This document shows, piece after piece, positions 5,723 to 29,841 of a stretch of DNA of 64,000 nt; positions within the stretch are counted from its first letter, which is position 1; each line of letters opens with the position of its first letter. The stretch is from Myxococcota bacterium (lineage in GTDB: Bacteria; Myxococcota_A; JAVEVO01), in NCBI GenBank assembly GCA_034005005.1, contig JAVEVO010000002.1:4389-68388 (forward strand), written 5' to 3'. The notes under the pieces are model-generated. The model made no database searches. It saw nothing but the letters and a program-made list of their open reading frames with translations, and was not told where the DNA came from. Position numbers and translations under genes: made by a program.

Positions 5723-5866
5723 GCCGCCGACCCGCTCTCCCGGGAACTCCCGCCGCCTCCACGTGTCCATCTCCTCCGACAGCCCCCGACGAGCCGCGCG
5801 CGAGTCGGTCCGCTGGCTCCGTCCAGTGAGAGACCTGCGGCAGGGTGCGGGGAGGGCCCGGCGACC

Positions 5867-8053: not shown

Positions 8054-10348
8054 TCACCGCTCGTCGTCCTCGTCCTGGTCCTCGTCCTGGTCCTCGTCCT
8101 CCTGGTCCTCCTCTTGATCCTCCTCCTCCACACCATCTGGTTCGTCCACCTGCCAGGAGCGATCGACCAGCTTGCCCATGGCTTCGTACTCGATGACCGC
8201 GGACTGCCAGATCAGCTCCTGGCCGACCTCGCTCGCCCCCGCGGCAGAGGCCATCACCGCGGCGCGCAAGGCGCTGTTCTTGATGTGGCCACCGCTCATC
8301 TCGAAGGCCTCGGCGAGCTCGTCCCAGTCCACATCCCGCGCGAGCGGCGCCTCCGCGGGGAAGGCCAGCGCCCAGAGCCGGCGTCGCTGAGACCGGCTGG
8401 GCGCCCGGAACGAGATGCGGAACTTGATGCGCCGGCGGAAGGCCTCGTCGATCACCTCGCCATGGTTGGTGGTCAAGACGGCGACACCGCCGAACTGCTC
8501 GAACAACTGGAGCAGGTGGTTGACCTCCAGGTTGGCGTAGCGGTCCACGGAGCTCCGGACCTCGGTGCGCTTCGTGAACAGGCTGTCCGCTTCATCGAAC
8601 AGGATCACGGAGGGCACGTCCTGGGCGGCCGCGAAGAGCCGGGAGAGGTTCTTCTCGGTCTCACCGACGTACTTGTCGACGAGGGAGGAGAGGTCCACCC
8701 GGTACAGATCCAGCCCGAGCTCGCGCGCGATGACCGAGGCCACCATGGTCTTCCCCGTCCCGGGCGGCCCCTCGAACAACGCGGTGAGCCCTTTACCATA
8801 GGGGAACTTCCGCCCGAACCCCCATTGTTCGAAGACGCGACGCTGATGACGAGCGAAGTGGACGATCTCCTCGAGGCGAGCGCGGGTCTCGACGGGCAGC
8901 ACGACGTCGGGCCAGCCGAACCCCGTCGCGATGCGCTGGGCGATCTTCCCCAGGCGCTCCCCGAGGCGCTGCTGGCACTCCCGCTCGAGCAGCGCGGGCA
9001 GGCCTTCCGGGGAGCCCTCGGCGAGCCGCTCGACCGCTTGCGCCGCGGCCAGACGGATGTCGCCCCCGGAGAGGGCGTAGCGCGCGCCGAGATCCATCCC
9101 GTCGACGCTCGTGGTCAGCCTGGAGTCGAGGAACCGACTCCAGAGCAGCGCGCGCTCAGGGGCCGACGGCAGCGGCAGGCCGAAGCGGAGCAGCCGCGCC
9201 CCGGCCAGTTCGAGCCCCAACCAGTCCGCCCGTTCGAGGCTACGCACGAAGACGGACGCGTCTGCCCGTTGCACCAGCTCGGTCAAACGAACGGCCAATC
9301 CCGGGGCCAGCCCCTCCCGGTCCGGTGGCGGCGCCGACGGCGCGTCGAGCAGCAGCATCGCCCCGTGCAGCCGAGCTTCGCGCAGCAGGGCCGCGAGCCT
9401 CCCCACGGCCTCCTCCGGCGCGGCGAGCAGCGGCGCCAGGTCGGCCTGCAGGAGCCGCTGGCCCCGGCGCGCGGCCAGCCAGCGCCCAGCGCTGCGACGC
9501 CCCGTCCCGCATGGCCCGTAGAGATTGCACCAGGCTGGTGCGCCAGCCTGACCGAGCTGCCCGCCGAGACGGGCCAGCTCAGCCAGCAGCTCGGCGCCGA
9601 GCACGAGCGGCTCGGATGGGTCGGGCAGCGGCAGCAGGCGGGCCTGCAGCTCGGGGGCAACTCCCACGGAGCCGGTGCCACCGAGCAGGAGCGAGGCGAT
9701 CCGACCGGAGAGGTGGAGCTGACGACCACGCAGGGGCAGGTCGCGGGCCCCCTCGTCCTCGAGGTGGACGAGACCGTGGACCACCAAGGGAGAGCCGGGC
9801 GCGAGCCGCCGGAGCACATCGCGAGCGCCCGGGGGGCTGCCGCCGAGGAGATCGGCCAGGAAACCGGCGGTGGGGAGCTTGCGGCCGAAGTCGTTCCAGG
9901 CGAAGCACCAGGCCCGCTCAAAACGGGAGTCGGAGGCTGGCGCGAGCAGCGCCAGGAGGATCCAGCGATCGAGTGGCTCGAGGGGAAACCGGTCGATCAA
10001 GCGATTGAAGGGTAGCTCCACTCCCTCGACGGCGCTGGAGATCAGCCGACGGTCCAGCTCGAGCCGGGAGGCCTTGAGGCGGTCCTCGAGCTCGGGCTCG
10101 GGCAGGTCGATGACGGGAGGCGCATGGAGCAGCCGCCCCACCTCGCGCCCAGGAACGTAGAGGCCGCGGCTGTCCTCGCCCGGCTGGTGGTGCGCTGCCA
10201 GGTAACGGACCAGCAGCAGCCGGGCCCACCCCAGCTCCGCGTCGAGGTGTGCGGTCGCGTCGCGAAAGGGGGCGTCCGAGGCGACGTCCACGCGCACCAC
10301 GGCTCCGGCAGACTCGTCAAGCTCGGCTCGGTCCTCACGGTTTGACAA
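8054..10348 (-). CDS. AAA+ ATPase with a degenerate N-terminal AAA domain and a canonical C-terminal AAA domain (Afp15/Pvc15-like loader-type ATPase), acidic DE-repeat C-terminal tail
   Basis: Canonical Walker A (GPPGTGKT), Walker B ([11 protein letters not shown]) and sensor/arginine-finger region ([15 protein letters not shown]) near the C-terminus. A degenerate first P-loop ([13 protein letters not shown]) lies upstream. The tail is [24 protein letters not shown]. Proposed TTG start at 10348 with GGAG 5 nt upstream. The 5' part of ORF 8054..14413 (above about 10350) is antisense to the real + gene and is not counted. Confidence 0.8.
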
Positions 10349-10408
10349 CTCGGCTCCGGCTGCTAGGGTGAAATCCCTAATACCATTGCAGAGCCGCAGG
10401 AGTCGACA
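10349..10408. promoter_or_regulatory. 60-bp divergent intergenic region between the AAA ATPase and DUF4157 genes; AT-rich core with a TAGGG-N6-CCCTA palindrome
   Basis: tagggtgaaatcccta (10364-10379) followed by the AT-rich taataccattgcagagc. Both divergent start codons (TTG 10348 on the minus strand, GTG 10409 on the plus strand) flank it. Confidence 0.35.
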
Positions 10409-13400
10409 GTGGCGAACCCGACCCACATGCACCAGGTCAGTCGTGTGGCCAGCGGCCGGACCGTGAGCCGCCAGGTCGACTCCGGGGGGGCGATGCAGGC
10501 ACCGGTCGGCGGCGCCAAGGTCGCGCTGCACCGGGGCGATCCCGGAGTGCAGCGACAGGTGGCCCGCCAGCTCCAGGCGGAGCAAGGAAACGCCGCGGTG
10601 GCCCGGCTGGCCCAGGAGCACGAAGGTGAGCCCGACGGAGGCGCCGAACCGCTGTCCGTGGACGCGGCGTTCGCCCTGGCCACGTCCGGCCGCTCGTCCC
10701 GCCTCCCCTTCGCGGCCGAGCTCGGTCCCAAGCTGGGCCTGGACCTCTCCCGGGTGAAGGCCTACCTCGGGGGCCCCGAGGCCGAAGCCGGGCTGGCGGC
10801 GCTCGGTGCCGAGGCCGCGGCCCACGGCGACCAGGTCGCGTTCCGCATGGCATCCCCCTCCAAGGAGCTCGTCGCGCACGAGGCGACCCACATCGCCCAG
10901 CAGGGAGGCAAGCCGGGCGCGACCTCCGGCTTGACCGTCAGCCAGCCCGGAGACGCCCTCGAACGTCAGGCCGAGAGCACCGGCCGCGACCTGGCCGCGG
11001 GCAAGACCCCCACCGGCGGGAAGGACGACCAGGCAGCCGCCGGCTCCTCGCTGGCCCGCGCGCCGGGCCCCGCGGACCCGATCCCGGTCCAGATCGACAC
11101 GGCCCTCGCGGCCACGCCGCTCAAGGCGGGAGCGGTCTACAAGCTGATCTTCCACAAGGATTTCGCGCTGGCCGATCGCACGATCCTGGGCCAGGACGCG
11201 ACCAAGATGGCCAAGATCGCCGCGGCCTTCGCGGCGGACGGCAGCAACATGGCCAAGGCCGCCATCCGGCTCGCCTGCACGCTGGCCGACGTCATCAAGT
11301 GGTGCATGGCCGCCAACCAGGCGAGCAAGCTCGCGGAGAAGCACTTCCAGAACCGCTTCGCCGGGGCCACCGCCGACGAGATCGTCGGCCTGCTCGCCAA
11401 CACCGAGGCGCTGACCGCCTTGATCAACGGCCAGAAGACCGCCAGCCCCATCAAGGCGGCGAGCATGGTGGCGGCCCCCGACAAAACCAAGGCCCTCCTG
11501 ACCGACCCCACCGGCCGGAGCTGGGCGCTGGGGGTCCACGGTGGGCTGCGCAACGTCTTCAAGGCGATGGTCCAGGCCCAGAAGGACGCGATCAAGGCCG
11601 ACGCGCCCACCCTGGCAGCGCTGCTGGCGACGCCCGAGGCCGCGACCGAAGACCTCGCCCAGATGCTCAAGAACCTGGGCTACAAGCCCCTCGAGGCGAT
11701 CCCCCTGCTGCAGACGGCCAACAGCCTGGTCAAGCTCGGCATGCCGCCCTACCCGGCCTGGTTCTGCAAGGAGGTGACGCGCGCCGACCTCGAGCCCTTC
11801 TTCGCGGCGCCGGAGTTCGAGACGCTCAAGAGCTCGGCCGGGCCCGCGATCAAGCCCCTGGAGATCGAGAGCCTGAAGAAGAGCCCAGGTGACTTTGGTA
11901 CCTTGCTCGGCGCGCAGCCCAAGTTCAAGGAATGGATCCTGCAAGCGGAGGGCTGGCCCCCGCTGCTCGAGGCCGTCGCCAAGCGGCTGGACGCGGCGAT
12001 GTACAGCGGGCTCCTCGCGGGCAGCGAGTGGCCGACCCTGGTGCAGGACCTGTATCTCCAGAAGAAGTCGGGAGACACCAAGGACGCCGAGGAGGTCGTG
12101 GCCAAGCTCAAGAAGGTCATGCCCCCGGAACACCAGGAGAACCTGGCGCTGCTCCTGGGGCTGCACGAGCTGAAAGACAAGATCGACGAGGCCGTCGCCG
12201 AGGCGGCGAAGCCGCCGGGGGGCCCGGAGGCCGGCGCCGATGGCGAGGCCAAGGCGCTGACGCCAGCCGAGGCGCTGGAGGCGCAGCTCGCGAAACCGGC
12301 TCCACCACCCAAGGAGCTGCTGGCTGCGGTGCTGGCGCTGCCCGAGGCCGATCGGACGACCCTGGCGGCCGACGACGCGAAGATGTCCAAGATCGCCGCC
12401 CTGCTCGGTCGCGGTGGCCAGGACGTGGTCAAACTGGCGATCGATCTGAAGGCCGCGCTCGACCAGATCGTCCGGTGGGTGCAGGCCGCGGGCCAGGCGG
12501 CCAAGCTCGGCAACAAGCCCTTCGTCGCCCGCGTCCACGACCAGGCCACCGACGTCGAGGTCACCGCCTTCGTCGACAAGCCCGAGCTGCAGACGCTCAT
12601 CGCCGCAGCGGGCAAGGCGGTCAAGCCGCTGGCGATCAAGGACCTCACCGGGAGCACGGCGAAGATGGGCGCGCTGCTCGGGGCCAAGGCCGCGTTCCGC
12701 ACCTGGGCGGTGACGGTCCAGACCTGGGGCGCGCTGCTCGACTACCTGGCCAAGCAGACCGACGCCACCCTGGCCGCGGCGCTGATCGCGGGAGCCGAGT
12801 GGAACAACCTCGTCCAGGACATCGAGCAGCAACGGACCGCCGGTGACCAGACCAAGGCCCGCAAGGCGCTCGACGCGCTCTTCGCAGCGACCCCGGACGG
12901 CAACCTCAACGAGCTGCAGCAGCTCTTCCAGGCCCGCTTCGGCATCTCCGTGACCTCGGCCCAGGCGGCCAATCCGGCGAACACCAAGGCGATGACCGAA
13001 GGCGATGGCCAGCATGAGCGAGCCTGGGACGCACCCGCCCTCCGGCGAGTCTACGATTCCTACAAGAAGCTGCCGCCAGGCCAGGTGGAATCGGGGAAGA
13101 CCGAGGTCGCGACCAGCTACGTCACCTACGATCCGGTCTGTCCGGCCTGCGGCAACGACAACTCCAAGGACGCTGCCGGAAACAAAGTCGGGCAATGGGG
13201 GCCCAACTGCTCCGGCGGAGCTGCCCCATGCGGCGCGGCCCTCGACGTGACCAACAACTGGAGCGGCTTCGCCTACAACGCCACCCCGCACCTGTCCATC
13301 CAGTACGACGATCAGGACATCGCCAAGGACGAGACCGGGGGGTACACGGACAACGCCAAGGACCTGCGCCGCAACACCAAGCTGCTGGACTACACCGCGC

Positions 13401-14086
13401 TGCACGAGCTGGGCCATCGCGTCGATGAGGGACGAAAGTACACCAACAAGGACCAGACCTTCCTGGACCTGGCCGGGTGGAAGGCCTACCCCGTCGGGAA
13501 CGCGGGGGGAGGGGCGGATCTCGCCAAGAAGCTGCGGGACAAGATGGGTGCCCCCTACGGGGGAGGCGCGCTGACCGACCCCGAGAAGGCGCTCGTGGTG
13601 GACGGTGCAGCCAACGCCCTGGCCGCGGCGACTCGCCCGAAGATCGTGGACGATCTGAAACCTCACCTCCAGGCGGCGTACACCGCCAAGTACGGCGGCC
13701 TGGCCGCGGGGATGGATGGCAGCAAGGCCTACCGCGAGTTCGACAACGTCGCCGGCACGGGGCTGTGGAGCGCGGCCAAGACGTCGAACCTCTACGTGCA
13801 GGTCGCAGCCGGCAACGAGGCCAACTCCCCCTGGTACACGGGGGAGCCCTTCGGGAGATTGAACAAGGGACTCCAGTTCCACGAAGGGTACGGGTACGAG
13901 GGCTGCTGGTGGGCCTACAAGACGACGGCGTGGAGCACGAAGATCAGCCTCTATCAGTTCCGCTGCCCAGCCGACCACTTTGCAGAGCTCTACGCACTCT
14001 GGTGGGTCACTGCGACACCAGGAGATAAAGTCAAAGGCAAGGCCCGGGACTGGTTCAAGTCCAAGAACCTCCACAAGGACGGCTGA
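10409..14086 (+). CDS. DUF4157 (PVC/eCIS-associated zincin, HExxH) domain protein, 1225 aa, with internal duplication and a C-terminal second HExxH putative toxin domain
   Basis: AGGAG RBS, then GTG 10409. The DUF4157 signature is …SGRSSRLPFAAELGPKLGLDLSRVKAYLGG…GDQVAFRMASPSKELVAHEATHIAQQ. Two roughly 330-aa Ala/Lys-rich helical repeats follow (…DATKMAKIAAAFAADG… and …DDAKMSKIAALLGRGG…). The C-terminal Cys-containing domain carries HELGHRVDEG. Confidence 0.8.
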   Translation: MANPTHMHQVSRVASGRTVSRQVDSGGAMQAPVGGAKVALHRGDPGVQRQVARQLQAEQGNAAVARLAQEHEGEPDGGAEPLSVDAAFALATSGRSSRLPFAAELGPKLGLDLSRVKAYLGGPEAEAGLAALGAEAAAHGDQVAFRMASPSKELVAHEATHIAQQGGKPGATSGLTVSQPGDALERQAESTGRDLAAGKTPTGGKDDQAAAGSSLARAPGPADPIPVQIDTALAATPLKAGAVYKLIFHKDFALADRTILGQDATKMAKIAAAFAADGSNMAKAAIRLACTLADVIKWCMAANQASKLAEKHFQNRFAGATADEIVGLLANTEALTALINGQKTASPIKAASMVAAPDKTKALLTDPTGRSWALGVHGGLRNVFKAMVQAQKDAIKADAPTLAALLATPEAATEDLAQMLKNLGYKPLEAIPLLQTANSLVKLGMPPYPAWFCKEVTRADLEPFFAAPEFETLKSSAGPAIKPLEIESLKKSPGDFGTLLGAQPKFKEWILQAEGWPPLLEAVAKRLDAAMYSGLLAGSEWPTLVQDLYLQKKSGDTKDAEEVVAKLKKVMPPEHQENLALLLGLHELKDKIDEAVAEAAKPPGGPEAGADGEAKALTPAEALEAQLAKPAPPPKELLAAVLALPEADRTTLAADDAKMSKIAALLGRGGQDVVKLAIDLKAALDQIVRWVQAAGQAAKLGNKPFVARVHDQATDVEVTAFVDKPELQTLIAAAGKAVKPLAIKDLTGSTAKMGALLGAKAAFRTWAVTVQTWGALLDYLAKQTDATLAAALIAGAEWNNLVQDIEQQRTAGDQTKARKALDALFAATPDGNLNELQQLFQARFGISVTSAQAANPANTKAMTEGDGQHERAWDAPALRRVYDSYKKLPPGQVESGKTEVATSYVTYDPVCPACGNDNSKDAAGNKVGQWGPNCSGGAAPCGAALDVTNNWSGFAYNATPHLSIQYDDQDIAKDETGGYTDNAKDLRRNTKLLDYTALHELGHRVDEGRKYTNKDQTFLDLAGWKAYPVGNAGGGADLAKKLRDKMGAPYGGGALTDPEKALVVDGAANALAAATRPKIVDDLKPHLQAAYTAKYGGLAAGMDGSKAYREFDNVAGTGLWSAAKTSNLYVQVAAGNEANSPWYTGEPFGRLNKGLQFHEGYGYEGCWWAYKTTAWSTKISLYQFRCPADHFAELYALWWVTATPGDKVKGKARDWFKSKNLHKDG

Positions 14087-14087
14087 C

Positions 14088-14774
14088 GTGACGGTGCGCC
14101 GAGCTCGAACCTCGAGCTGGTCCTTGCTGACCGCAGCCTGGGCCTTGCTGGCGAGCGCCTGCAATCCCGAGGGCGTCCGGGCCGAGCCCCCCGCCTCTGG
14201 AACCCCTCCGGCCGCTCCGCGCCCGGCCGACCTGCAACCAACCCCGGAGAAGCCCATGGACCCCCGCGCCGCTCTCGAGCAACAGATCCGCCAGGCCCGC
14301 CCGGGCGCCGCCTTCACCGTGACCGAGGTCCCCTTCGGCGTGGCGGGCTGGTCCTTCTTCGACGTCACCTTCACCCCGACCGCCACGGCCATGGACCGGA
14401 GCGCCGACCGCACGGCCTACACGCTGCGCGCCGACGGCAGCGTGGTCGCGGGAGACCGACGGCCGGAGCTGGGACGGATCCTCGGCCGGGCCGGCGCGCT
14501 GGAGCCGGGAGCCGGAGGGCGCACACCCCGACAGCTCGCCGAGCTCGTCCTTCACGTGCTGGGGCGGCCGGAGAGCCCGCTCGACGGACCGGGAAGGGAT
14601 CCGCAGAGCCCGCAGGGGCACGCCGCGCCCCCCTTGCTCGAGGCGACTGCCCAGGGGGTCCAGCTCCGCTTCTTCACCCTGCAGGCCGGTGCCATGGTAC
14701 CGGAAGTCGTCCGCTACCAGATCGATCTCTCACGGGATCTCACCCTGACCATGGAGCGCCGCGCGCTCCGCTGA
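14088..14774 (+). CDS. Small lipoprotein immediately downstream of the DUF4157 protein (candidate immunity/partner protein)
   Basis: GTG at 14088 lies 2 nt after the upstream TGA. Signal peptide and lipobox (…SWSLLTAAWALLASAC). No recognisable family. The earlier part of ORF 13980..14774 overlaps the upstream gene and is excluded. Confidence 0.5.
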   Translation: MTVRRARTSSWSLLTAAWALLASACNPEGVRAEPPASGTPPAAPRPADLQPTPEKPMDPRAALEQQIRQARPGAAFTVTEVPFGVAGWSFFDVTFTPTATAMDRSADRTAYTLRADGSVVAGDRRPELGRILGRAGALEPGAGGRTPRQLAELVLHVLGRPESPLDGPGRDPQSPQGHAAPPLLEATAQGVQLRFFTLQAGAMVPEVVRYQIDLSRDLTLTMERRALR

Positions 14775-14787
14775 CAAGGGTTCCAAC

Positions 14788-15369
14788 GTGACCACCGAGG
14801 ACCCGGACCTGCCCGAGCGCGCAGACCTGGAACAGGGCCTGAAGTACCTGCACCTCGTCGGCGAATCGCTGCGCAACGAGCTGGTGGCCGAAGGGGGACT
14901 CCTCTACGCCCTGGTGGACCTGCTGATCGCCAAGGGAATGATCCGCACGGTCGAGCTGGAGCAGCCGCGGGCAGAGGCCGCGGCCCGGGTGCAGCAGACC
15001 CTCGCGGCCATCCCGTCCCTGGCCTTCGGGCCGCTGGTCGACAAGTACGCCTTGGTCGTGGCCGGCCCCAGCGACTGCCTGGCGCGGCTGCCCGTGTGCC
15101 GGGGCGCCTGCTGCCGGCTGCCCCGCTGCCTGTCGGTCCAGGACCTGCAGGAGGGCGGGCTGCGGTGGGACTACTTCGCCCCCTACCTCCTCGGTCGCAC
15201 GCCGGACGGTCGCTGTCTGCATCAAGACGCACACCACCGCTGCACGGTCTACGACCGGCGGCCGGCCGCGTGCCGGAGCTACGACTGCCGCACCGACGGC
15301 CGCATCTGGCTGGACTTCGACCGCTGGCTGGTCCACCCGGACGTGGAGCAGCTCGGACGGCCCCGCTGA
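14788..15369 (+). CDS. YkgJ-family Fe-S/zinc-cluster protein (CxxCxxCC domain)
   Basis: …LPVCRGACCRLPRCLSV…CLHQDAHHRCTVYDRRPAACRSYDCR… matches the PF03692/UPF0153 cysteine pattern. Confidence 0.65.
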   Translation: MTTEDPDLPERADLEQGLKYLHLVGESLRNELVAEGGLLYALVDLLIAKGMIRTVELEQPRAEAAARVQQTLAAIPSLAFGPLVDKYALVVAGPSDCLARLPVCRGACCRLPRCLSVQDLQEGGLRWDYFAPYLLGRTPDGRCLHQDAHHRCTVYDRRPAACRSYDCRTDGRIWLDFDRWLVHPDVEQLGRPR

Positions 15370-15619
15370 CGGCAGGGGGACCACACGCGGCGGCCGCTGC
15401 TCGCGGGTTCGGCCGCAATCCGGCCCTGTCCCCCGATGACCGGGCGACGGCCAGAGCAGGCCGGTCGGCAGCAGAGCTGGCCAGGACACCCCCGAGCGCG
15501 CAGACCGGCCTCCGGATCGCGGCACGACCGGACGCTGGCCCCCTCACCTGCAGGAGCCAGCATTCGGTGCCTGCCCCACCGCCCCTTGCCAGGACCACGC
15601 CCGGGGGCTACTCTGCCCC

Positions 15620-15712
15620 CCGTCTGTAGGGGTGTCCCGACTACACGGTCGGGGCTGAGATCACACCCTCGGAACCTGACCCGGGTCATGCCGGCGTAGG
15701 GAACGGACGAGC
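15620..15712 (+). promoter_or_regulatory. TPP (thiamin pyrophosphate, THI-box) riboswitch
   Basis: ctgtaggggtgtccc…ggggctgagatcacaccctcggaacctgacccgggtcatgccggcgtagggaacgg matches the conserved THI-element core (AGGGGUGyCC…GCUGAGA…ACCCU..GAACCUGAyCCGGGUmAUGCCGGCGUAGGGAA). A downstream cctcctcc (15731-15738) can pair with the SD ggagg at 15766-15770. Confidence 0.8.
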
Positions 15713-15769
15713 GCAGCCCTCCCCCCGAGGCCTCCTCCAGGTATCCCCCGCGGCCGGACCCTGCCGGAG

Positions 15770-18373
15770 GTGATCGTGGATTTCGCGCACACGCTCTTTC
15801 CCACCGCACGCGCCCTGGCCCGCACCCGGAGCCGCCGATCGGTCGCCTGGGGCCTCGCCTCACTGCTGTTGCTCGCCGGGAACCCCGCGCCAGCCCGCCC
15901 CCTGGCCGGCGTCGTGCGCTGCGCGCAGACGGGCCAGCCCATCGCGGACGCCACGGTGCAGGTGGAGGGTGGTGACGGCCGGGCCCGGACCGCGGCCGAC
16001 GGGCAGTTCACCCTGGAGGTGCCGGAAAACGAGGCGCTGCGCCTCTCCGCGGCCGCGCCCGGCTTCTTGCCGGCCTGGTCCCCGGCCCTGCCCCCCGACT
16101 TCACCGGCCCCCTGGAGCTCCGGCTCCCGCCGCAGCCCACCGACCCGCTGTTCGCCACCGTCGTCACCGCGACCCGGGCGACCAGCGGGCGCACCCCCGC
16201 GACCTTCACCAACCTCGACGCGGCCGAGCTGCAGCAGCGGAGCTGGGGCCAGGACCTCCCTATCCTCCTCGAGAGCCAGCCGGGCGTCTTCGCGACCTCG
16301 GACGCGGGCAACGGCATCGGCTATACGACCCTGCAGCTCCGGGGCTTCGACGCCCGCCGGGTGGGGGTCCAGATCGACGGGGTGCCCCTGAACGACCCCG
16401 CGGAGCAGCTCGTCTACTGGGTCGACGTCCCGGACCTCGCGTCCTCCCTGCAGGACGTCCAGGTGCAGCGAGGGATCGGCTTTGCCGGCACCAGCCACTT
16501 CGGCGGCACCATCAACCTGGTCACCGACGACGCGGCCCTGACGCGCCGCTTCGAGCTGACCACCGGCCTCGGCAGCTTCGGCACCTTCCGCAACGCCCTG
16601 CGCCTCGGCTCGGGGCTCGTCGACAACAAGTACTCGATCTCCGGGCGCTTCTCCCGCGTGGTCTCCGACGGCTACCGGGAGCGCAGCGGCAGCGAGCTCT
16701 GGGGGTACTTCCTGACCGCCCGCCGCTTCGGCCCGAGCTGGTCTCTGCGGCTCACCACCTTCGGCGGACAGGAGCAGACCCGGCTGGCCTTCAACGGCAC
16801 GCCCGCGTCCCTGCTGGCGGCGGGCGAGCGGCGCCTGAACCTCGACGACTACTACGCCGCACCGGACAGCCCGGCCAACACCTACCCAAAGAGCCTCGAC
16901 CACTTCCAGCAGCCCCACACCCAGCTCAGCGTGGAGTGGCGCCCCTTGCCCGAGCTGGAGCTGCGCACGACCTTGTACGTGATCCAGGGGCGCGGCTGGT
17001 ACCAAGGTTACAAGGCCGACCGGGACCTGGCCGACTTCGGCTTTCCGGACAGCGATGCGGAGTCGGACCTGATCCGCCGCAAGCACGTCGCGAAGCTCGA
17101 GCTCGGCACGGTCGGCCAGGCCGCCTGGCGGCGGGAGGCCCTCGGGCTGACCCTCGGCTGGAGCCTCGACTGGCTGAGCTCGGACCACTGGGGCGAGCTG
17201 CTCTGGATCGCGGCCCCCCCCGCCCAGGACGGCTGGCCCGATGACTACTACCGCTACACCGAGGAGAAGACGACCCTGTCGACCTACCTCGACGCGGAGT
17301 ACCGGCTGCTCTCCAGCCTGCGCCTGCTCGGCGAGCTGCAGCTCCGCCACGGCAGCTTCGCGTTCCGGCACGCGGACGCCGGCAGCTTCGGCCCGGCCGA
17401 GCGCTACGAATTCACGGACGCGCGCACCCTGCTCAACCCCAAGCTCGGCCTCCTGTACGACCTCGTGCCCCGGCCGGCCGCCGCCGGGGGCGGGAGCGCG
17501 CCGGCCGCCGCCACGACCCTCCGGCAGGGCGAGCTGTACCTGCTCGTCGGCAAGAGCGGCCGGGAGCCGGCGGCCGACGACTACTGGGACGCGTGGCAGG
17601 GCCCGGACGATCGCGGGGCCGCGCCCCTCTTCCGGACCTTCACCGCCAACGAGGAGCGGGTCCAGGCCACCGGCTCCCGGCTGAACACGGAGACCTTGCT
17701 CGACGTCGAGCTCGGCAGCCGCTGGTCCCTTCGTCCCGATCTTCCCGGCCTGCGCTCGCTGAGTGCAACCTTGGCCCTGTACTGGATGGACTTCCGCAAC
17801 GAGATCCTCACCGCGGGCGGCGTGGACGACGATGGCAACCCCGTGAAGGGCAACGCCAAGCGCTCGATCCACCGGGGCCTCGAGGGCAGCTTGCGGCTGA
17901 TGCCGTGGCGCGGGCTGGCCCTCACCGGCAACCTGACCCTGGCCGACAACGTCGCGGTGGACCTGATCCAGCGGACCTGGGACGAGGAGGGCCAGGTGGT
18001 GCAGCTCGACCGCGGGGGCAACCCCCTCCCGGGCACACCCGTGACCCTCGCCAACCTCGGGCTCGCCTGGTCCGTCGGCCCCGCCACCCTGGAGCTCACG
18101 GGCAGCCACACCGGGCGACGCTACCTCGACCTGAGCGGCTTGGCCGAGCGCAGCCTCGACCCCTACTTCCTGCTGCACGCCGGGGCCCGGCTCGAGCTGG
18201 AGCGGCGGCTCGGGCTGGAGCGGCTGCAGCTCGCCCTGACCGTGCGCAACCTGCTGGACACCCCCCACGAGACCCACGGCTGGTGGGACGAGTGGTACGG
18301 CGACGGCGGGGAGGCGATCCTCTTCCCCGGCGCGCCCCGGCAGGTGCACCTGAGCCTGACCCTCGGGCTTTAG
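15770..18373 (+). CDS. TonB-dependent outer-membrane receptor with N-terminal carboxypeptidase-regulatory-like domain
   Basis: Signal peptide, then a CarbopepD_reg-like segment (VRCAQTGQPIADATVQVEGGDGRARTAADGQFTLEVP). The plug domain reads …QDLPILLESQPGV…GYTTLQLRGFDARRVGVQIDGVPLND…. A long beta-barrel follows. The GTG at 15776 may be the true start (GGAGG 5 nt upstream). Confidence 0.85.
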   Translation: MIVDFAHTLFPTARALARTRSRRSVAWGLASLLLLAGNPAPARPLAGVVRCAQTGQPIADATVQVEGGDGRARTAADGQFTLEVPENEALRLSAAAPGFLPAWSPALPPDFTGPLELRLPPQPTDPLFATVVTATRATSGRTPATFTNLDAAELQQRSWGQDLPILLESQPGVFATSDAGNGIGYTTLQLRGFDARRVGVQIDGVPLNDPAEQLVYWVDVPDLASSLQDVQVQRGIGFAGTSHFGGTINLVTDDAALTRRFELTTGLGSFGTFRNALRLGSGLVDNKYSISGRFSRVVSDGYRERSGSELWGYFLTARRFGPSWSLRLTTFGGQEQTRLAFNGTPASLLAAGERRLNLDDYYAAPDSPANTYPKSLDHFQQPHTQLSVEWRPLPELELRTTLYVIQGRGWYQGYKADRDLADFGFPDSDAESDLIRRKHVAKLELGTVGQAAWRREALGLTLGWSLDWLSSDHWGELLWIAAPPAQDGWPDDYYRYTEEKTTLSTYLDAEYRLLSSLRLLGELQLRHGSFAFRHADAGSFGPAERYEFTDARTLLNPKLGLLYDLVPRPAAAGGGSAPAAATTLRQGELYLLVGKSGREPAADDYWDAWQGPDDRGAAPLFRTFTANEERVQATGSRLNTETLLDVELGSRWSLRPDLPGLRSLSATLALYWMDFRNEILTAGGVDDDGNPVKGNAKRSIHRGLEGSLRLMPWRGLALTGNLTLADNVAVDLIQRTWDEEGQVVQLDRGGNPLPGTPVTLANLGLAWSVGPATLELTGSHTGRRYLDLSGLAERSLDPYFLLHAGARLELERRLGLERLQLALTVRNLLDTPHETHGWWDEWYGDGGEAILFPGAPRQVHLSLTLGL

Positions 18374-18377
18374 CCGG

Positions 18378-19850
18378 GTGAGCCTCCTCGACCGCCTGGT
18401 GATCCTGGCCTACCTCGGGGCCACCCTGGCCCTCGGGCTGGGGCTGGGCGCGTCCTGGCGCCGGCCCGCCCCGGGAGGCAACGACCGCGAGAGCTACCTG
18501 CTCGCGGGGCGACGCCTCAGCCTGCCCGCGTTCGTCGCCGCGCTGGTCTCGAGCTGGTACGGGGGCGTGCTCGGGGTCGGCGAGTACACCTTCAGCTACG
18601 GCATCTCCAACTGGCTCGTCTTCGGCGTGCCCTACTACCTGGCCGCGTTGATCTTCGCCCTGCTCCTGGCGGGGCGGGCCCAGCGGGCGCGGGTCCTCAG
18701 CCTGCCCGAGCAGCTCCGCCAAGCCTACGGCAGCGGCGCGGGCGCGCTCGCCGCGGGCGTGGTGGTGGCGACGACCCTGCCCGCCGCCTACCTGCTCACC
18801 GTCGGCCTGCTGCTCGGGCTGGCCTTCGACCTCCCCCTCTGGCAGGGGGTGCTCGCCGGCGCCCTCTTCGCGGTCGTCCTCAACTGGGCCGGCGGGCTGC
18901 GCTCGGTGGTGCGCAGCAACCTGCTGCAGTTCGGGCTGATGTACGGCGGCTTCGCGATCCTGCTCGGCTCCCTGATGCTGGAGCACGGCGGGCTCGGCTT
19001 CCTGCGGGCGAACCTCCCCGCGAACCACCTCACCTGGAGCGGCGGCCGGCCCCTGCAGGCCATCCTGGTGTGGTATCTGATCGCGCTGGCCACCCTGGTG
19101 GAGCCGACCTTCTACCTGCACTGCTTCGCGGCGAAGAGCCCCCAGGTGGCCCGGCGCGGGCTGCTGATCTCCATCGTCGCCTGGTGCGGTTTCGACGCCT
19201 TGACCACCTTCAGCGGACTGTACGCGCGGGCCCTGCTCGATCCGACCCTGGGGCTCTCCGCGGAGGCCTATCCCCGCCTTGCGGCCCAGACCCTCCCCCC
19301 CGGCCTGCTCGGCCTGTTCTACGTGGCCCTGTTCTCCACGGTGCTGTCCACCATCGACAGCTACCTCTTCCTCTCCGCCACCTCCCTCGGCCCGGACCTG
19401 CTCGGGCAGCTCGGCGACCGCTGGCGCCGCTGGCGACGGACCGCGGCGGGGCCGACGACCGCCAGCGCGACGGCCCCTCCCTCCCCAGCGAGCGGCGACG
19501 GCCAGCGCCGGCTCACCCGGGTCGGCCTGCTGCTCTCCGCCGGGCTGGCCTCGGGGATCGCGCTGGTCGCCCGCTCCGTGGTCGATATCTGGCATGATTT
19601 CGGGACGATCGGCACCGCGACCCTGCTGGTCCCCGCGGTGGCCTCCTTCTTCCCCCGCCTGCGCCTCTCCCCCCGGGGGGCCTTGCTGGGCATGGCCCTG
19701 ACCCTGCCCGTCGCCCTGGTCTGGACCCTCAGCCGCCGCTTCTCGACCACGGGCGAGCACCTGCTCGGCGTCGAGCCGATCTTCCCCGCCCTGGGGCTCG
19801 GGTTGCTGGTCTGGGGGATCGACCGGCTCCGGGGCCGGCGCACACGCTGA
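18378..19850 (+). CDS. Sodium:solute symporter (SSF) family transporter
   Basis: Start is 4 nt after the TonB receptor stop, so probably same operon. Protein MSLLDRLVILAYLGATLALGL…SYLLAGRRLSLPAFVAALVSSWYGG… has a 12-13 TM SSF pattern. Confidence 0.8.
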   Translation: MSLLDRLVILAYLGATLALGLGLGASWRRPAPGGNDRESYLLAGRRLSLPAFVAALVSSWYGGVLGVGEYTFSYGISNWLVFGVPYYLAALIFALLLAGRAQRARVLSLPEQLRQAYGSGAGALAAGVVVATTLPAAYLLTVGLLLGLAFDLPLWQGVLAGALFAVVLNWAGGLRSVVRSNLLQFGLMYGGFAILLGSLMLEHGGLGFLRANLPANHLTWSGGRPLQAILVWYLIALATLVEPTFYLHCFAAKSPQVARRGLLISIVAWCGFDALTTFSGLYARALLDPTLGLSAEAYPRLAAQTLPPGLLGLFYVALFSTVLSTIDSYLFLSATSLGPDLLGQLGDRWRRWRRTAAGPTTASATAPPSPASGDGQRRLTRVGLLLSAGLASGIALVARSVVDIWHDFGTIGTATLLVPAVASFFPRLRLSPRGALLGMALTLPVALVWTLSRRFSTTGEHLLGVEPIFPALGLGLLVWGIDRLRGRRTR

Positions 19851-19858
19851 GGTCGTCT

Positions 19859-21139
19859 TCAGCCGCAGCCGCCGACGACCTTGGCCCGGGCCTGGATCGT
19901 GACCTTGCGGGGGTAGGTGTGGGTGGGCCAGACCGGGGGGGCATTGACCGGATCGACGCCCGGCATGCCGCAGAAGTAGGGCAGCACTTCCTTGCACGCG
20001 CAGTCGGGATGCGCCGCGTAGGCCCGCTGCCCGACCGCCCGGCGGAAGCGGTAGCCGAACTCTTCGTTCCCGGAGTCTTTTTCGGCAAGACAGGTCGAGG
20101 GCGGGTACTTGGCCAGCCAATTCGCGTAGCCGCCCTCGATGATGTAGAGGTTGCCCACCCCCGCGGCGCTGAGGGTCTTGAACAGCCCGACCGCCGCCGC
20201 CTCGCCCCGGCCGATGAGCAGCACCGCGGTGCTCGCCTCCTGGGCCTTCAGCTTCTGGAGGAGGGCCGGCGCGAGGGGCCGATCGGGATCGACGCGCAGG
20301 GCGCCGTAGAGATGGAAGACGTTGTACTCCCGCTCAGACCGCACATCCAGGACGATGGTACTAACGCCACCCTGCTTGCGGAGGTCGGTCAGCTCGGCCG
20401 GATGGATGAAGACGGAGCGGTCGGCCAGCCTCTGCTCCGTGGCCGCCGCGATCCACTGCCAGCGATCCGCGAGATCGGGCTGCCCGAGCACGGCGACGAG
20501 CAGGGCGACGCCGAACAAGGCGCCGCCACCGATCCGGACGAGACGGGGTACGGGCCCCCGCACGACGCCGAAGCGCCGCTCCGCGAGCTCGGCCAGGGCG
20601 AACGCCCCCACGGCCATGCCCACCAGCCCGAGCAGCACGACGCCGGCGTCGACGCCGAAGAGGTCCATGAGGGTGAAGCGGCCGAGGTGGCTGCTGTGAT
20701 AGAAATCCTCGAAGTTACCGACAGTTTCGCCAAAGAGCAGGGTCCCCAGCCCGACCCCGACGAGGAAGACCATCCCGTCGATCTTCAGGGTGCTGGCCGC
20801 GACGAGGCTGGTCCCCGGGCAGAAGCCGCCGATGATGAAGCCGACGCCCCCGATCAACCCGCCGACGATGCCGGGCCAGAGGTAGGTCGGGTTGACGAAG
20901 ACCCGATCGAAGTCGAGCAGCTCCAGGCTGCAGGCGAGGAAGATCAGGAGGCTGGCGACGACGATACCCGTGAACATGACCTTGAGCACGGTCATCTCGT
21001 GCAGGTAGAACTGCGCGGCCAGCTTCCGGCTGTCGCCGAAGCCCGAGAGCTCCAGCACCACGCCGAAGCCCAGCCCGATCGCGAAGAAGATCAGGAACTG
21101 GGCGAAGCCGCCGAGCACGTGGACGTCGAAGGGAGCCAT
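19859..21139 (-). CDS. YeeE/YedE-family sulfur-compound transporter domain fused to C-terminal rhodanese domain
   Basis: Sulf_transp-like N-terminus (…GGVGFIIGGFCPGTS…) and rhodanese-like C-terminus (…TIVLDVRSEREYNVFHLYGALRV…). AGGAGG RBS upstream of ATG 21139. Confidence 0.8.
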   Translation of the reverse strand: MAPFDVHVLGGFAQFLIFFAIGLGFGVVLELSGFGDSRKLAAQFYLHEMTVLKVMFTGIVVASLLIFLACSLELLDFDRVFVNPTYLWPGIVGGLIGGVGFIIGGFCPGTSLVAASTLKIDGMVFLVGVGLGTLLFGETVGNFEDFYHSSHLGRFTLMDLFGVDAGVVLLGLVGMAVGAFALAELAERRFGVVRGPVPRLVRIGGGALFGVALLVAVLGQPDLADRWQWIAAATEQRLADRSVFIHPAELTDLRKQGGVSTIVLDVRSEREYNVFHLYGALRVDPDRPLAPALLQKLKAQEASTAVLLIGRGEAAAVGLFKTLSAAGVGNLYIIEGGYANWLAKYPPSTCLAEKDSGNEEFGYRFRRAVGQRAYAAHPDCACKEVLPYFCGMPGVDPVNAPPVWPTHTYPRKVTIQARAKVVGGCG

Positions 21140-21149
21140 GGTCTCCTCC

Positions 21150-21677
21150 TCAGGTCCACTGCTTGCGCAGGGAGTAGGCCAGCAGGTACCCGCCGGCGAA
21201 CACCGCGAACATGAACGCGAAGCTACCGACCGAGAGCACCGCGCCGCCGCTGAGAGCCTGGCCCGAGGTGCAGCCCCGGGCGAGCCGGGCGCCGTAGCCC
21301 ATCAGGGCGCCGCCGACCAACGCGAGGAGGAGGCGGGTCCCGGCCTGGACCCGCGGGCCTCGCCGCAGCTCGAGCTTGAAGCGCCGGTTGAAGAGGCCGC
21401 TCAAGGCCCCGCCCAGCATGGTGCCGAAGAGCATGAAGACCGAGCTGTGATCGAAGGGGTTGCGGCTGCCGCCCGCGGTCTCCGCGAGGCCCGCGACCCG
21501 GTCGACGTGGTCCGGCGCGGCCAGGGCGACCAGACCCGACTGCACCCGGCTGATCGCGCCCGAGGCGCCCAGCCCGCCGCCCGTGACGAAGAAGGCTAGA
21601 AAGAGCACGACGCCCAGCAGACAGCCTCCCAGGTAGGGGTTCAGGTAGGGTCGCGGCCCCCTGGCGTCGTCAGACAT
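21150..21677 (-). CDS. YeeE/YedE-family membrane protein (second half-transporter)
   Basis: …YGARLARGCTSGQALSGGAVLS… is the Sulf_transp motif. ATG 21677 (MSDDARGP) with AGGAGG 6 nt upstream is preferred over the GTG at 21692. Confidence 0.75.
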   Translation of the reverse strand: MSDDARGPRPYLNPYLGGCLLGVVLFLAFFVTGGGLGASGAISRVQSGLVALAAPDHVDRVAGLAETAGGSRNPFDHSSVFMLFGTMLGGALSGLFNRRFKLELRRGPRVQAGTRLLLALVGGALMGYGARLARGCTSGQALSGGAVLSVGSFAFMFAVFAGGYLLAYSLRKQWT

Positions 21678-23907
21678 CACCGCCTCCTTCACCGGGCGCG
21701 GGCCCTTCGTCGAGGATGTCGTAGCCCGTGATCATCGCCCGCAGGTTGCTGCCGAGGGTGTGCCCGGTGGTGATCAGGTACAGGTGCGCCACCACGAAGG
21801 CCAGCAAGGCCCAGGAACCGAGGTTGTGCAAGGGTGCGATCAGGTACAGCCCGGGCAGGTCGACGGCCAGCCCCGGCTGGCGGCCGGTCAGCCAGATCAG
21901 GATCCCCGTGACCACCTGGAAGGGGATCAACACGTTGAGCAGCATCAGGTAGGTCACCTGCTGCAAGGGGTTGAGGTGGCGCTGCGGGGTGCGGGGCAGC
22001 GGATGGGGCGCGCCCACGAAGATGCCGTGGAGATAGAAACGGGCCTGGCTCAGGACATCCCGGAACAGGGTCGGCCCCCGCGGGATGAACTGCCGGATGT
22101 CGGTGGTGACGAGGTGGTAGAACAGGCTGAGCACCGCATTGACGATCAGCACCAGGGCGAGGGCGTTGTGCAGCCGCACCGCGTGGGCGAACCCGAGCAA
22201 CGGGAAGCAGTCGACGAAGTGCACCTCGAGGCCCGTGAGGAGCAACAGCACGATGCTCGCCGCCATCAACCAGTGCCACAGCCGCTGGTAGCGGGTGTAC
22301 AGGTAGACCTGCCGGTTGGGCCCGTGAGTTGCCGGACGACGTCGCCGGGTCACGAAGCGCACCAGGCCGTGCACGAAGATGCCGGCGAAGGCGAGGAGGA
22401 ACAGGCCGAAGCCGGTCCGATCGGACCAGCCCTCCCGGCTGTGCCCGAAGATGTAGACCGTCGCCGTGGCCGGCGGCTCGTAGACCAGCTCACGGGCTGG
22501 ACCTGGCAGCAGACGCCCCCCGGCGAGGGGCCCCGTGGAGGGGAGCTCCAAGCGCAGACCCGGAGGGAGGGCCCCGACCAGGGGGATGGGCAGCGCCAGG
22601 CGGCCCTGCTCCCCGTGGCAGCGACCGCAGGCCATGGTCGCGCCGGCCCGCTCCTGGGTGCCATGGTGCAGGCCGTGGGCCTCGACGCTGCCAGTCAGCC
22701 GCGGCTGCGTGACCCCCTGCTGCCGGAGCAAGTCTGCGACCAGCGCGACCTTGGCCTCCGTGTCGAGGTGCTGCTCCGGCGCGGCCAGGCGCCCGTCGTG
22801 ATCGGTGTCGAGCTGGGCCAGGAGTGCAGGCTTGTAGCGCCCGCGCTCCAGCAGGGCCGCGGCGAGGGTCGTCAACGGCACGTCCCCGCCGCTGGCCGCA
22901 TCCTGCCAGCCGAGCAGCGTGACCAGGTTGAAGGGCCGCCAGCGAGGATCCCCGCCATGGGCCGAAGGGACGGGGAGCAAGGCGGGCGAGAAGGGCGAGG
23001 TGAGGCGGACGTTGGGGGAGACGCCCGGGTCCAGGGGCTGGTTGTGATAGGTCACCAGCGCACTGCCGGTCTCCATGACCAAGGTCGCATCGATCACCGC
23101 AACCGTAGGACCAAAGCTCTCGGGGGCATGGCAGGTCGAGCAGGCGACCCGCTCGAAGTGACGCTTGGGGTAGGGCAGCTCGGGGTGGACGGCCAGGGGC
23201 TCGTGGCAGCTCGTGCAGGGGGCGGCGCCGAGCCGGTGGTCGGGCCGCACCAGGTAGCTGCCGAGGCTCACCTGACGGGGATCCCGCTTCAGATGCGGTA
23301 GGCCGGCCCCCGGACGTGAGCGGGCCGGGTGGTTGGCCGACCGGTGGCAGTCGGTGCAGGTGAGCAAGCGGGCCGCGTGGATGTCGAAGGGCCGGTCGAG
23401 GCCATCCTTGCCCACCAGGTTGAGGTGGCTGGCGGCCATCTGCTGGGAGGAATAGACCACGCCGCTGGCCTTGGTCAGCGAGTGGTGGTCCTCGATGAGG
23501 GCCGTCGGCGTCCAGTCGTAGTCCTCGGGGAGTGCGAGGGGCCAGGGATCGGTGTGCACCAGGCCGTGACAGCGACCACAGCGGCTCGTGGTGGGTGCGG
23601 AGAGGTCGATCTCTTCCCGCACGAGCCGCCCTTGCTCGTCGAGCTGCTTTTCGCCGATGTCCCAGGGCTGGTCACGGTGGCAGACGGAGCACTCGAGACC
23701 AGGATGGCTGTTGTGTTGCTCGATGTACGCGACGTCGTGGCACTGGCTGCAGGTCGCGGCCTCCGAGAAGACCCCGCCCTGCTCGAGGAGGGACCCGCCC
23801 TCCTCGTTGCGCGCCACGAAGGTGGGGTGCAGGGGGTTGGGCGCGGCGAGGGCCAACGACGGCAGCAGCCAGAGGAGGAGCAGAGGAAACGGGCCACGCA
23901 CGCTCAT
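21670..23907 (-). CDS. CbcL-like fusion: periplasmic multiheme c-type cytochrome (7+ CxxCH) plus C-terminal diheme cytochrome b (HydC/FdnI-like) membrane domain
   Basis: Signal peptide MSVRGPFPLLLLWLLPSLALA. CxxCH motifs: CSQCH, CSVCH, CGRCH, CTDCH, CTSCH, CSTCH, CGRCH. C-terminal cytochrome b (PF01292-like) helices with conserved His (…YTRYQRLWHWLMAASIVLLLLTGLEVHF…APLHNLGSWALLAFVVAHLYLI…). Confidence 0.8.
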   Translation of the reverse strand: MSVRGPFPLLLLWLLPSLALAAPNPLHPTFVARNEEGGSLLEQGGVFSEAATCSQCHDVAYIEQHNSHPGLECSVCHRDQPWDIGEKQLDEQGRLVREEIDLSAPTTSRCGRCHGLVHTDPWPLALPEDYDWTPTALIEDHHSLTKASGVVYSSQQMAASHLNLVGKDGLDRPFDIHAARLLTCTDCHRSANHPARSRPGAGLPHLKRDPRQVSLGSYLVRPDHRLGAAPCTSCHEPLAVHPELPYPKRHFERVACSTCHAPESFGPTVAVIDATLVMETGSALVTYHNQPLDPGVSPNVRLTSPFSPALLPVPSAHGGDPRWRPFNLVTLLGWQDAASGGDVPLTTLAAALLERGRYKPALLAQLDTDHDGRLAAPEQHLDTEAKVALVADLLRQQGVTQPRLTGSVEAHGLHHGTQERAGATMACGRCHGEQGRLALPIPLVGALPPGLRLELPSTGPLAGGRLLPGPARELVYEPPATATVYIFGHSREGWSDRTGFGLFLLAFAGIFVHGLVRFVTRRRRPATHGPNRQVYLYTRYQRLWHWLMAASIVLLLLTGLEVHFVDCFPLLGFAHAVRLHNALALVLIVNAVLSLFYHLVTTDIRQFIPRGPTLFRDVLSQARFYLHGIFVGAPHPLPRTPQRHLNPLQQVTYLMLLNVLIPFQVVTGILIWLTGRQPGLAVDLPGLYLIAPLHNLGSWALLAFVVAHLYLITTGHTLGSNLRAMITGYDILDEGPAPGEGGGDV

Positions 23908-29633: not shown

Positions 29634-29841
29634 GCCGATCACCTCCGCGCCCCCCGGGGGGGCTCTGCTTTAATTTGAGACAAATAGAATCTCAATTGTA
29701 GATAAACACCGTTCCAGTCATCCACCTGACCAGGGACCGGTTTGAGGATTGACTCTCGCTGCAGTTGTCGATTAGGCTCGTTCCGTTCCAGAAGTCTATT
29801 CTGCAGAGAGCGAAGGCAGCAACCAGCAGCGAGGTAATCTC
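29634..29841 (+). promoter_or_regulatory. AT-rich (about 45% GC) promoter/regulatory island upstream of the giant lipoprotein gene, containing GTTCCAG direct repeats
   Basis: tttaatttgagacaaatagaatctcaattgtagataaac in a roughly 72% GC background. gttccag occurs at 29711 and 29785. GAGGT RBS before ATG 29842. Confidence 0.45.

Follow-up and report, generated by a model that had tools for sequence, protein, structure and literature searches.

The 64-kb window analysed here (the whole stretch of 64,000 nucleotides from contig JAVEVO010000002.1 of a Myxococcota bacterium) carries at positions 15618-19850 a thiamin pyrophosphate (TPP) riboswitch, a gene for a TonB-dependent outer-membrane receptor (TBDR) and a gene for an inner-membrane carrier of the sodium:solute symporter family (SSF, also termed SSS), in this order and on the forward strand. 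We consider it likely that these elements constitute a two-gene operon for the uptake of thiamin (vitamin B1), the translation of which would be blocked in a TPP-dependent manner through the riboswitch. Since the gene that follows at 19859-21139 lies on the opposite strand, the operon is limited to two genes. A first-pass annotation of the same DNA, made from the letters alone, had assigned the unit to positions 15620-18373, an interval which covers the riboswitch and the receptor gene and, by ending at 18373, leaves out the SSF gene. The features of the operon and its leader are:

15618-15719, forward strand: TPP riboswitch aptamer (RF00059), identified by cmscan, helices mapped by hand from the alignment
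15705-15711, forward strand: candidate anti-sequestor GGACGAG, overlapping the 3' strand of helix P1, proposed from folding
15730-15738, forward strand: anti-Shine-Dalgarno (anti-SD) segment GCCUCCUCC, of which 15730-15735 are predicted to pair with the Shine-Dalgarno (SD) region 15766-15771
15738-15763, forward strand: internal hairpin (CAGG...CCUG), lying within the anti-SD/SD helix, predicted by folding
15766-15770, forward strand: receptor SD GGAGG, read from the sequence, 5 nt 5' of GTG 15776
15776-18373, forward strand: TonB-dependent outer-membrane transporter, with an alternative in-frame GTG at 15770, identified by Pfam and an AlphaFold2 (AF2) model
18378-19850, forward strand: sodium:solute symporter family carrier, PanF-like and ThiV-type, identified by PF00474

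The search of the whole window using cmscan and Rfam 15 yielded RF00059 as the sole Rfam family above threshold in the 64 kb; the match scored 66.9 bits (gathering score, 54.3; E=5.7e-11) and spans model positions 1-105 of 105. The THI-box core quoted in the first-pass annotation was recovered at 15629-15704, and the Rfam comparison which that annotation had proposed as a check places the aptamer 12.6 bits over the gathering threshold. Helix P1 is formed by CGUCUGU (15621-15627) paired with ACGGACG (15703-15709), helices P2, P3, P4 and P5 are intact with all mapped pairs canonical, and the core sequences CUGAGA, ACCUGA and CGUAGGGAA (also given as CGNAGGGA) are intact as well; the variable P3a stem is the only missing part of the aptamer. 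As judged from its sequence, the match is a genuine TPP riboswitch, for which binding of TPP and an effect on expression are predicted. No second or tandem aptamer was found in the window by a permissive rescan of 14300-20300, even at E<=1. Tandem TPP aptamers, 157-530 nt apart and preceding one receptor gene, were observed in four of the related loci compared below (L008, L042, L049 and L067); in L008 both aptamers (2842-2934 and 3365-3466) exceed the gathering score and no sizeable open reading frame (ORF) lies between them.

The ORF behind the leader, which ends in TAG (18371-18373), had been called a TonB-dependent receptor in the first-pass annotation, and this identity was confirmed by domain searches and by the predicted fold. 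An N-terminal CarboxypepD_reg domain (PF13620) and the plug domain PF07715 (residues 141-236; 39.2 bits versus a cut-off of 23.9) were detected using Pfam; the Pfam barrel model gave no match on the window receptor, and the homologs carry PF00593. The AF2 model, which was built with 40 homologs, had a predicted local distance difference test score (pLDDT) of 86.7 and a predicted template modelling score of 0.82, and in this model a large C-terminal beta-barrel encloses the plug, which completes the plug-plus-barrel fold. The best Foldseek matches were PqqU (9c4o), YncD and FecA, with E-values of 1e-35 to 1.8e-37 over approximately 750-800 columns, and further fold matches include FhuA; for PqqU the template modelling score relative to the target was 0.85 at a sequence identity of only about 16%. 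With the consensus of the TonB-box motif as a guide, a TonB-box-like segment ATVVTAT was located at amino acids 127-133 (nucleotides 16154-16174), where the family consensus reads EEVVVTA; the low pLDDT at this segment is expected for a disordered TonB box. Because GGAGG overlaps the GTG at 15770, the GTG at 15776 with its 5-nt spacer is the likelier receptor start. The Joint Genome Institute (JGI) gene call for an identical protein starts at 15770 (867 aa) and is named 'iron complex outermembrane receptor protein'. NCBIfam searches resulted in only partial matches to models of siderophore and B12 receptors, far below the cut-offs, and the PDB sequence search returned distant matches only (TonB-linked receptor 9gbc), which were of no help with specificity. 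One receptor homolog, P0146 (846 aa), has a precomputed PF01964 (ThiC family) entry between plug and barrel, which could be a spurious match or a gene-call artefact.

Among previously described receptors, omr (or omr1) denotes a BtuB-like outer membrane receptor under the control of a THI element (PMC2211319, PMC10881298, and PMC12442306, all citing Rodionov et al., 2002). It has in common with the window receptor the position of a TonB-dependent receptor right behind a TPP riboswitch and the status of a predicted B1 transporter of unproven specificity, whereas the window receptor is tied to an SSS carrier in a fixed operon and possesses a CarboxypepD_reg domain at its N-terminus; the two are likened by description, not by sequence. 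PqqU, the best structural match of the window receptor, and the product of btuB are likewise TonB-dependent transporters for a scarce cofactor, and btuB is also controlled by a riboswitch, that for cobalamin (PMC2211319), but ligands and riboswitch class differ from those of the window system.

The carrier gene starts with GTG at 18378, 4 nt after the receptor stop as the first-pass annotation had read it, and this start is backed by the residues D5 and Y12, which are conserved among 30 homologs. The protein was assigned to the SSS family by PF00474 (77.7 bits versus a gathering score of 22.8); TIGR00813 reached 73.5 bits, under its superfamily cut-off of 184, and TIGR02119 (panF), the sole equivalog-type NCBIfam match of note, reached 40.8 bits, below its cut-off. 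The sequence LSTIDS is found at residue 323, and S324 and T325 are nearly invariant (30 homologs). These two residues represent the Ser-Thr of the 'MST' motif of PutP and PanF, which belongs to the Na2 site, the role of the motif being known from PutP. Transport by the window carrier is presumably coupled to Na+.

Scores with the profile of the carrier family were 95.6 bits for PanF of E. coli, 63.5 for PutP, 42.3 for SiaT, and 40.1 for SAR11 ThiV (SAR11_0811; sequence obtained from the supplement of PMC11452348), and the carrier family formed a separate clade in a neighbour-joining tree. Orthology with SAR11 ThiV was considered and rejected, given 40 bits versus 95.6 for PanF, no phmmer match of SAR11 ThiV to the window protein, and the separate clade; from the low score and the tree position it follows that the carrier is not a SAR11-type ThiV. 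Both are carriers of the SSS superfamily under a TPP riboswitch (PMC11452348), but SAR11 ThiV/SssP belongs to another SSS branch, grouping in the tree with eukaryotic Dur31-like carriers, is without an outer-membrane partner and has hydroxymethylpyrimidine (HMP) as its cargo. The original ThiV, as described in PMC2211319 with reference to Rodionov 2002, is a homolog of PanF, the Na+/pantothenate symporter, that is regulated by a THI element, and ThiV has been listed as a B1 transporter (PMC6593275). By the sequence comparisons the window carrier fits this definition, being an SSS protein with PanF as its best-scoring characterised relative (95.6 bits) that stands under a TPP riboswitch as the second gene of a riboswitch-led operon. 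Carriers of the window family differ from the original ThiV in that they usually come second, behind an outer-membrane component, and the likeness is one of definition, not of sequence. The carrier has more than 1,200 relatives, and the PDB sequence search returned SMCT1 (7sl9) as a distant match that was of no help with specificity.

The arrangement was compared across 92 loci, 80 of them genomic and 12 metagenome-derived, the genomic loci originating from metagenome-assembled genomes of Zixibacteria, Eisenbacteria, Ignavibacteriales, KSB1, Myxococcota, and others. Loci were typed by a combination of Rfam scans, motif regular expressions, and tblastn using the window's proteins as queries. 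The tally of layouts took in the SSF loci fetched by then and counted the window's own locus; partnered loci were considered informative if the SSF gene was accompanied by an outer-membrane partner gene and sufficient flank, and for the partner-less class an upstream flank of at least 3.3 kb was required. The order TPP-TBDR-SSF was found in 44 loci including the window, with TBDR-SSF junctions of mostly 0-12 nt, the order TPP-SSF-TBDR in four, and the order TPP-UNK_A-UNK_B-SSF, in which two unannotated genes take the place of the receptor gene, in five; in L038, L053, L058, and L075 it is the SSF gene that directly follows the aptamer. The aptamer was present without exception in the informative partnered loci (53 of 53, window included) and in none of the 13 loci with an SSF gene alone. 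Four more loci of the UNK_A-UNK_B-SSF type were retrieved once the tally had been made, and the TPP aptamer precedes all four (nine such loci altogether). On these sequence data the link between riboswitch, outer-membrane component, and carrier is conserved across phyla far beyond chance, and the functional link of riboswitch, receptor, and SSF carrier proposed in the first-pass annotation thereby gains strong comparative support.

The partner-less and aptamer-less loci (L002, L012, L015, L021, L025, L037, L039, L043, L044, L055, L059, L063, and L068/L070) are scattered over the SSF tree, and at L070 a TPP aptamer is found 5.5 kb away on the other strand (390-487). All-against-all clustering of the neighbouring ORFs did not reveal a universally conserved third gene of the cassette; a methyltransferase, pyridoxal phosphate (PLP) enzymes, an esterase, and PIG-L are lineage-specific neighbours, and only thiamin pyrophosphokinase (TPK) recurs meaningfully. 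In full-text literature searches no paper was found on the pairing of the receptor with ThiV or on the cassette in these phyla. The single components are less new than the first-pass annotation suggested: TPP-regulated PanF-like SSS carriers (thiV) and TonB receptors (omr/omr1) have both long been catalogued (PMC2211319).

The JGI name of the identical receptor protein and the partial NCBIfam matches to siderophore receptors, B12 receptors, and panF, all far below the cut-offs, would suit a different reading, namely that receptor and carrier serve another substrate such as iron complexes or pantothenate and that the aptamer is vestigial or controls something different. We regard this as very improbable, given that the aptamer is intact and scores above the gathering threshold, that the aptamer accompanies the outer-membrane partner without exception in several phyla, that TPK is linked to the cassette in relatives, and that the NCBIfam matches are without exception far under the curated cut-offs.

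The closest relatives of the window carrier (53-60% identity) are not accompanied by a TonB receptor; in their loci a TPP aptamer (42-70 bits) precedes the two unannotated genes UNK_A and UNK_B. This module occupies 3193-7458 in L082 and occurs also in L035, L083-L085, L087, and L089-L092, and the window contains no copy. The UNK_A protein (approximately 425-439 aa) has no Pfam or NCBIfam match and all of its 94 homologs (94/94) are annotated 'hypothetical'; its AF2 model (pLDDT 87.3) is a 16-stranded porin-type barrel, the best fold matches of which are the phosphate/pyrophosphate porins OprP and OprO. The UNK_B protein (approximately 432-456 aa) carries a lipobox and weakly resembles a 'choice-of-anchor I' beta-propeller. 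We would only tentatively, and without favouring the idea, extend the thiamin assignment to the effect that the PanF-like SSS clade comprises widespread inner-membrane thiamin importers of Zixibacteria, Eisenbacteria, Ignavibacteriales, KSB1, Myxococcota, and relatives, with an outer-membrane partner that is interchangeable under the TPP riboswitch and is either a TBDR or a porin plus a beta-propeller lipoprotein. If this were true, the porin and the beta-propeller lipoprotein would provide B1 with a new way through the outer membrane that is independent of TonB, and the module might accept thiamin in phosphorylated form and remove the phosphate in the periplasm.

The nature of the cargo was assessed from genes linked to the cassette. 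TPK genes (PF04263 + PF04265) are linked in 10 loci: they lie inside the operon, between receptor and carrier, in L009 (5207-5857), L023 (3985-4647), L045 (approximately 5250-5903), and L046 (3606-4244), and they are divergent and adjoin the riboswitch in six Eisenbacteria loci (L007, L024, L047, L060, L062, and L079). A gap of approximately 800 nt between receptor and carrier occurs in about six loci, and in at least four of them a TPK gene fills it. None of tenA, thiD, thiM, and thiE was found near any of about 90 loci. Because TPK acts on intact thiamin and is linked in relatives, thiamin itself is favoured over a precursor, and intact thiamin is the most likely cargo as predicted from the gene content of these relatives; of the uptake of 'thiamin (or precursor)' suggested in the first-pass annotation, the second part is the less favoured.

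The closest known system is OMthi-pnuT-tnr3 of Bacteroides, which forms one operon in B. uniformis and separate OMthi and pnuT-tnr3 units in B. thetaiotaomicron, with TPP riboswitches (PMC5613172; bioRxiv 10.1101/867226). It shares with the window the order of TPP riboswitch, TonB-dependent transporter, and inner-membrane carrier, and some relatives of the window operon include TPK as the Bacteroides operon includes tnr3. The difference from this characterised example is an inner-membrane carrier of another family, which in the window is SSS (PF00474) and not PnuT; furthermore, the window operon is without a kinase gene, and OMthi was compared with the window receptor by gene layout and not by sequence.

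Two observations weigh against thiamin as the cargo in the window itself: its 64 kb contain no TPK gene, and no other thiamin gene adjoins the operon. The identity of the cargo consequently rests on relatives with only 45-50% carrier identity. The same operon and riboswitch might then serve a precursor or degradation product (HMP, formylaminopyrimidine (FAMP), or the thiazole moiety) or thiamin monophosphate or TPP. Apart from the missing TPK, this possibility draws on the SAR11 SSS carrier ThiV, which carries HMP under a TPP riboswitch (PMC11452348), on descriptions of ThiV as a 'thiamin precursor' or 'thiamin/HMP' transporter (PMC11223231) and of the specificity of omr1 as unclear (PMC12442306), and on the porin which replaces the TBDR in the closest relatives and best matches the phosphate/pyrophosphate porins OprP and OprO. 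However, the window carrier is not an ortholog of SAR11 ThiV (40 versus 95.6 bits for PanF; separate clade), tenA, thiD, thiM, and thiE were not found in the neighbourhoods of the approximately 90 loci, TPK as a user of intact thiamin is linked in 10 of them, and the characterised analog OMthi-pnuT-tnr3 imports thiamin (PMC5613172; bioRxiv 10.1101/867226). We therefore consider a precursor, degradation product, or phosphorylated form rather unlikely to be the cargo.

The first-pass annotation had further proposed a translational OFF switch, with an anti-SD complementary to GGAGG about 30 nt upstream. Both elements are present, CCUCCUCC at 15731-15738 and, after an interval of 27 nt, GGAGG at 15766-15770. 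In minimum free energy and ensemble folds GCCUCC (15730-15735) pairs with GGAGGU (15766-15771; p=0.57-0.65), and the local sequestor hairpin, which is the most stable local helix and includes the SD, has -18.0 kcal/mol. The segment GGACGAG (15705-15711) can pair with CUCCUCC (15732-15738) save for one C-C mismatch (local hairpin, -9.7 kcal/mol); this anti-sequestor hairpin has a pair probability of 0.76 when the ligand-free transcript ends at 15740 and is displaced once the SD is present. Only 66 nt separate the end of P1 from the start codon, and no intrinsic terminator or terminator-like site was found between 15709 and 15776. A scan for sigma-70 promoters gave no match and is uninformative for this organism.

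According to the mechanism that we propose, TPP would at high cellular concentration bind the aptamer and close P1 (15621-15627 with 15703-15709), leaving the anti-SD GCCUCC (15730-15735) free to pair with the SD region GGAGGU (15766-15771). Pairing of the SD would block initiation of receptor translation, and by translational coupling across the 4-nt junction the SSS carrier would be blocked also. At low TPP, P1 would be open and GGACGAG (15705-15711), which comprises the P1 3' strand and linker, could capture the anti-SD during transcription, whereby the SD would stay free. The receptor would then carry thiamin across the outer membrane using TonB energy and the PanF-like symporter would carry it across the inner membrane with Na+. 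The TPP riboswitch of E. coli thiM is translational and has an anti-SD/anti-anti-SD design. The logic proposed for the window agrees with thiM in that the P1 3' strand serves as anti-anti-SD, the anti-SD lies downstream of it, and the SD is hidden when the ligand is bound, whereas the pairing of the window anti-sequestor is mismatched and approximately 5 kcal/mol weaker than the sequestor, for which reason switching would have to be kinetic.

Several results weigh against this mechanism. At equilibrium and full length the SD was equally sequestered with the aptamer enforced, free, or P1-blocked, and a forced anti-sequestor state was approximately 5 kcal/mol less stable than the sequestor state, so that no ligand-dependent switch was seen in silico. 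In folding energy the leader was no better than shuffled sequences (z = 0.6-0.75). In simulated leaders of 51 nt and the same composition a CCUCC occurred by chance with a probability of 0.20-0.57; the complementarity of CCUCC is not above chance and not statistically unusual. Furthermore, no close relative with an intact leader was available for a test of covariation: L081 (99% identical) and L086 both start within the receptor gene, a scan of metagenomes for close relatives of the receptor yielded nothing but a 3' fragment of 123 nt (L088), and the JGI protein P0121, which is identical to the window receptor, has no contig on record. In addition, 14 of 44 related leaders are terminator-like (hairpins with U tracts), which means that the mechanism is not uniform in the operon family.

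Other related leaders resemble the layout in the window. The order of anti-SD, hairpin, and SD recurs as CCUUCC-hairpin-GGAAGG in six Eisenbacteria leaders. In 13 Zixibacteria and Ignavibacteriales leaders (L001, L016, L020, L033, L034, L036, L040, L048, L057, L071, L073, L076, and L077), which are highly conserved, a common helix of approximately 15 bp masks SD and AUG; in their alignment CAGGACGGAAUCUUGC pairs with GCGAGGUUACUGUCAUG, one compensatory pair occurs in the otherwise mostly invariant helix, and a hairpin GGAGAUG...CAUCCCC, which includes the P1 3' strand, lies upstream of it. Translational masking is common in this operon family. The riboswitches for thiamin transport in B. thetaiotaomicron also act on translation, close to the start codon (bioRxiv 10.1101/867226; PMC5613172).

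The chance expectation for CCUCC, the lack of an equilibrium switch, and the terminator-like hairpins with U tracts in 14 of the 44 related leaders would also be accommodated by control that is mainly transcriptional, either through a cryptic terminator or through Rho-dependent termination or mRNA decay, which would come after translational repression or take its place, with the CCUCC/GGAGG pair incidental to a C-rich and GC-rich leader. The C-rich unstructured segment CCCUCCCCCC (15717-15726) would suit the loading of Rho, and E. coli TPP riboswitches couple the block of translation to Rho termination or decay, as far as this is summarised in bioRxiv 10.1101/867226. We nevertheless assign mainly transcriptional control a low probability, since there is no intrinsic terminator at 15709-15776, the end of P1 is only 66 nt from the start codon, and the local helix of greatest stability (-18 kcal/mol) contains the SD. 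For the window we regard translational OFF control as the most probable mechanism and predict it with somewhat better than even confidence; switching would probably be kinetic, and Rho-dependent termination might follow as a further step. The earlier designation as a translational OFF switch is thus retained with regard to the absence of a terminator, the predicted anti-SD/SD helix, and the similar layouts in relatives, but the complementarity on which it was based is not statistically unusual, and in thermodynamic folding the SD is sequestered irrespective of whether the aptamer has formed.

Several neighbouring genes were recorded in addition. Directly downstream of the operon and convergent with it, a cluster on the reverse strand (19859-25322), which the 99%-identical contig L081 also retains, comprises genes for a sulfur-transport/rhodanese protein, for a thiosulfate-reductase-like 771-aa multihaem cytochrome with a fused cytochrome b, and for a 472-aa MtrC-like/Cytochrome_cB protein; it is followed by an ARMT1-like phosphatase at 25382-26278. 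Upstream of the riboswitch region, a 2119-aa ORF on the reverse strand (8054-14413) combines the winged-helix domain PF22977 with a C-terminal AAA ATPase. Two long ORFs overlap on opposite strands, one of 3329 aa at 29842-39831 (forward) and one of 2666 aa at 29692-37692 (reverse), which suggests a giant gene.

The conceptual addition of the operon is small, as TPP-regulated TonB receptors, PanF-like carriers, and operons of receptor plus carrier have all been described previously; the module of porin and beta-propeller lipoprotein is the part that could lead to new biology. For the two proteins in the window, which are automatically annotated as 'iron complex outermembrane receptor protein' and 'sodium:solute symporter family protein', the riboswitch points to a specific function, and via the conserved cassette the same functional assignment extends to hundreds of homologs in poorly known phyla. 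The linkage with TPK points to the use of intact thiamin, and not of precursors, in B1 ecology, and the assignment may be of use for predicting B1 auxotrophy and cross-feeding of uncultured lineages in sediment and soil communities.

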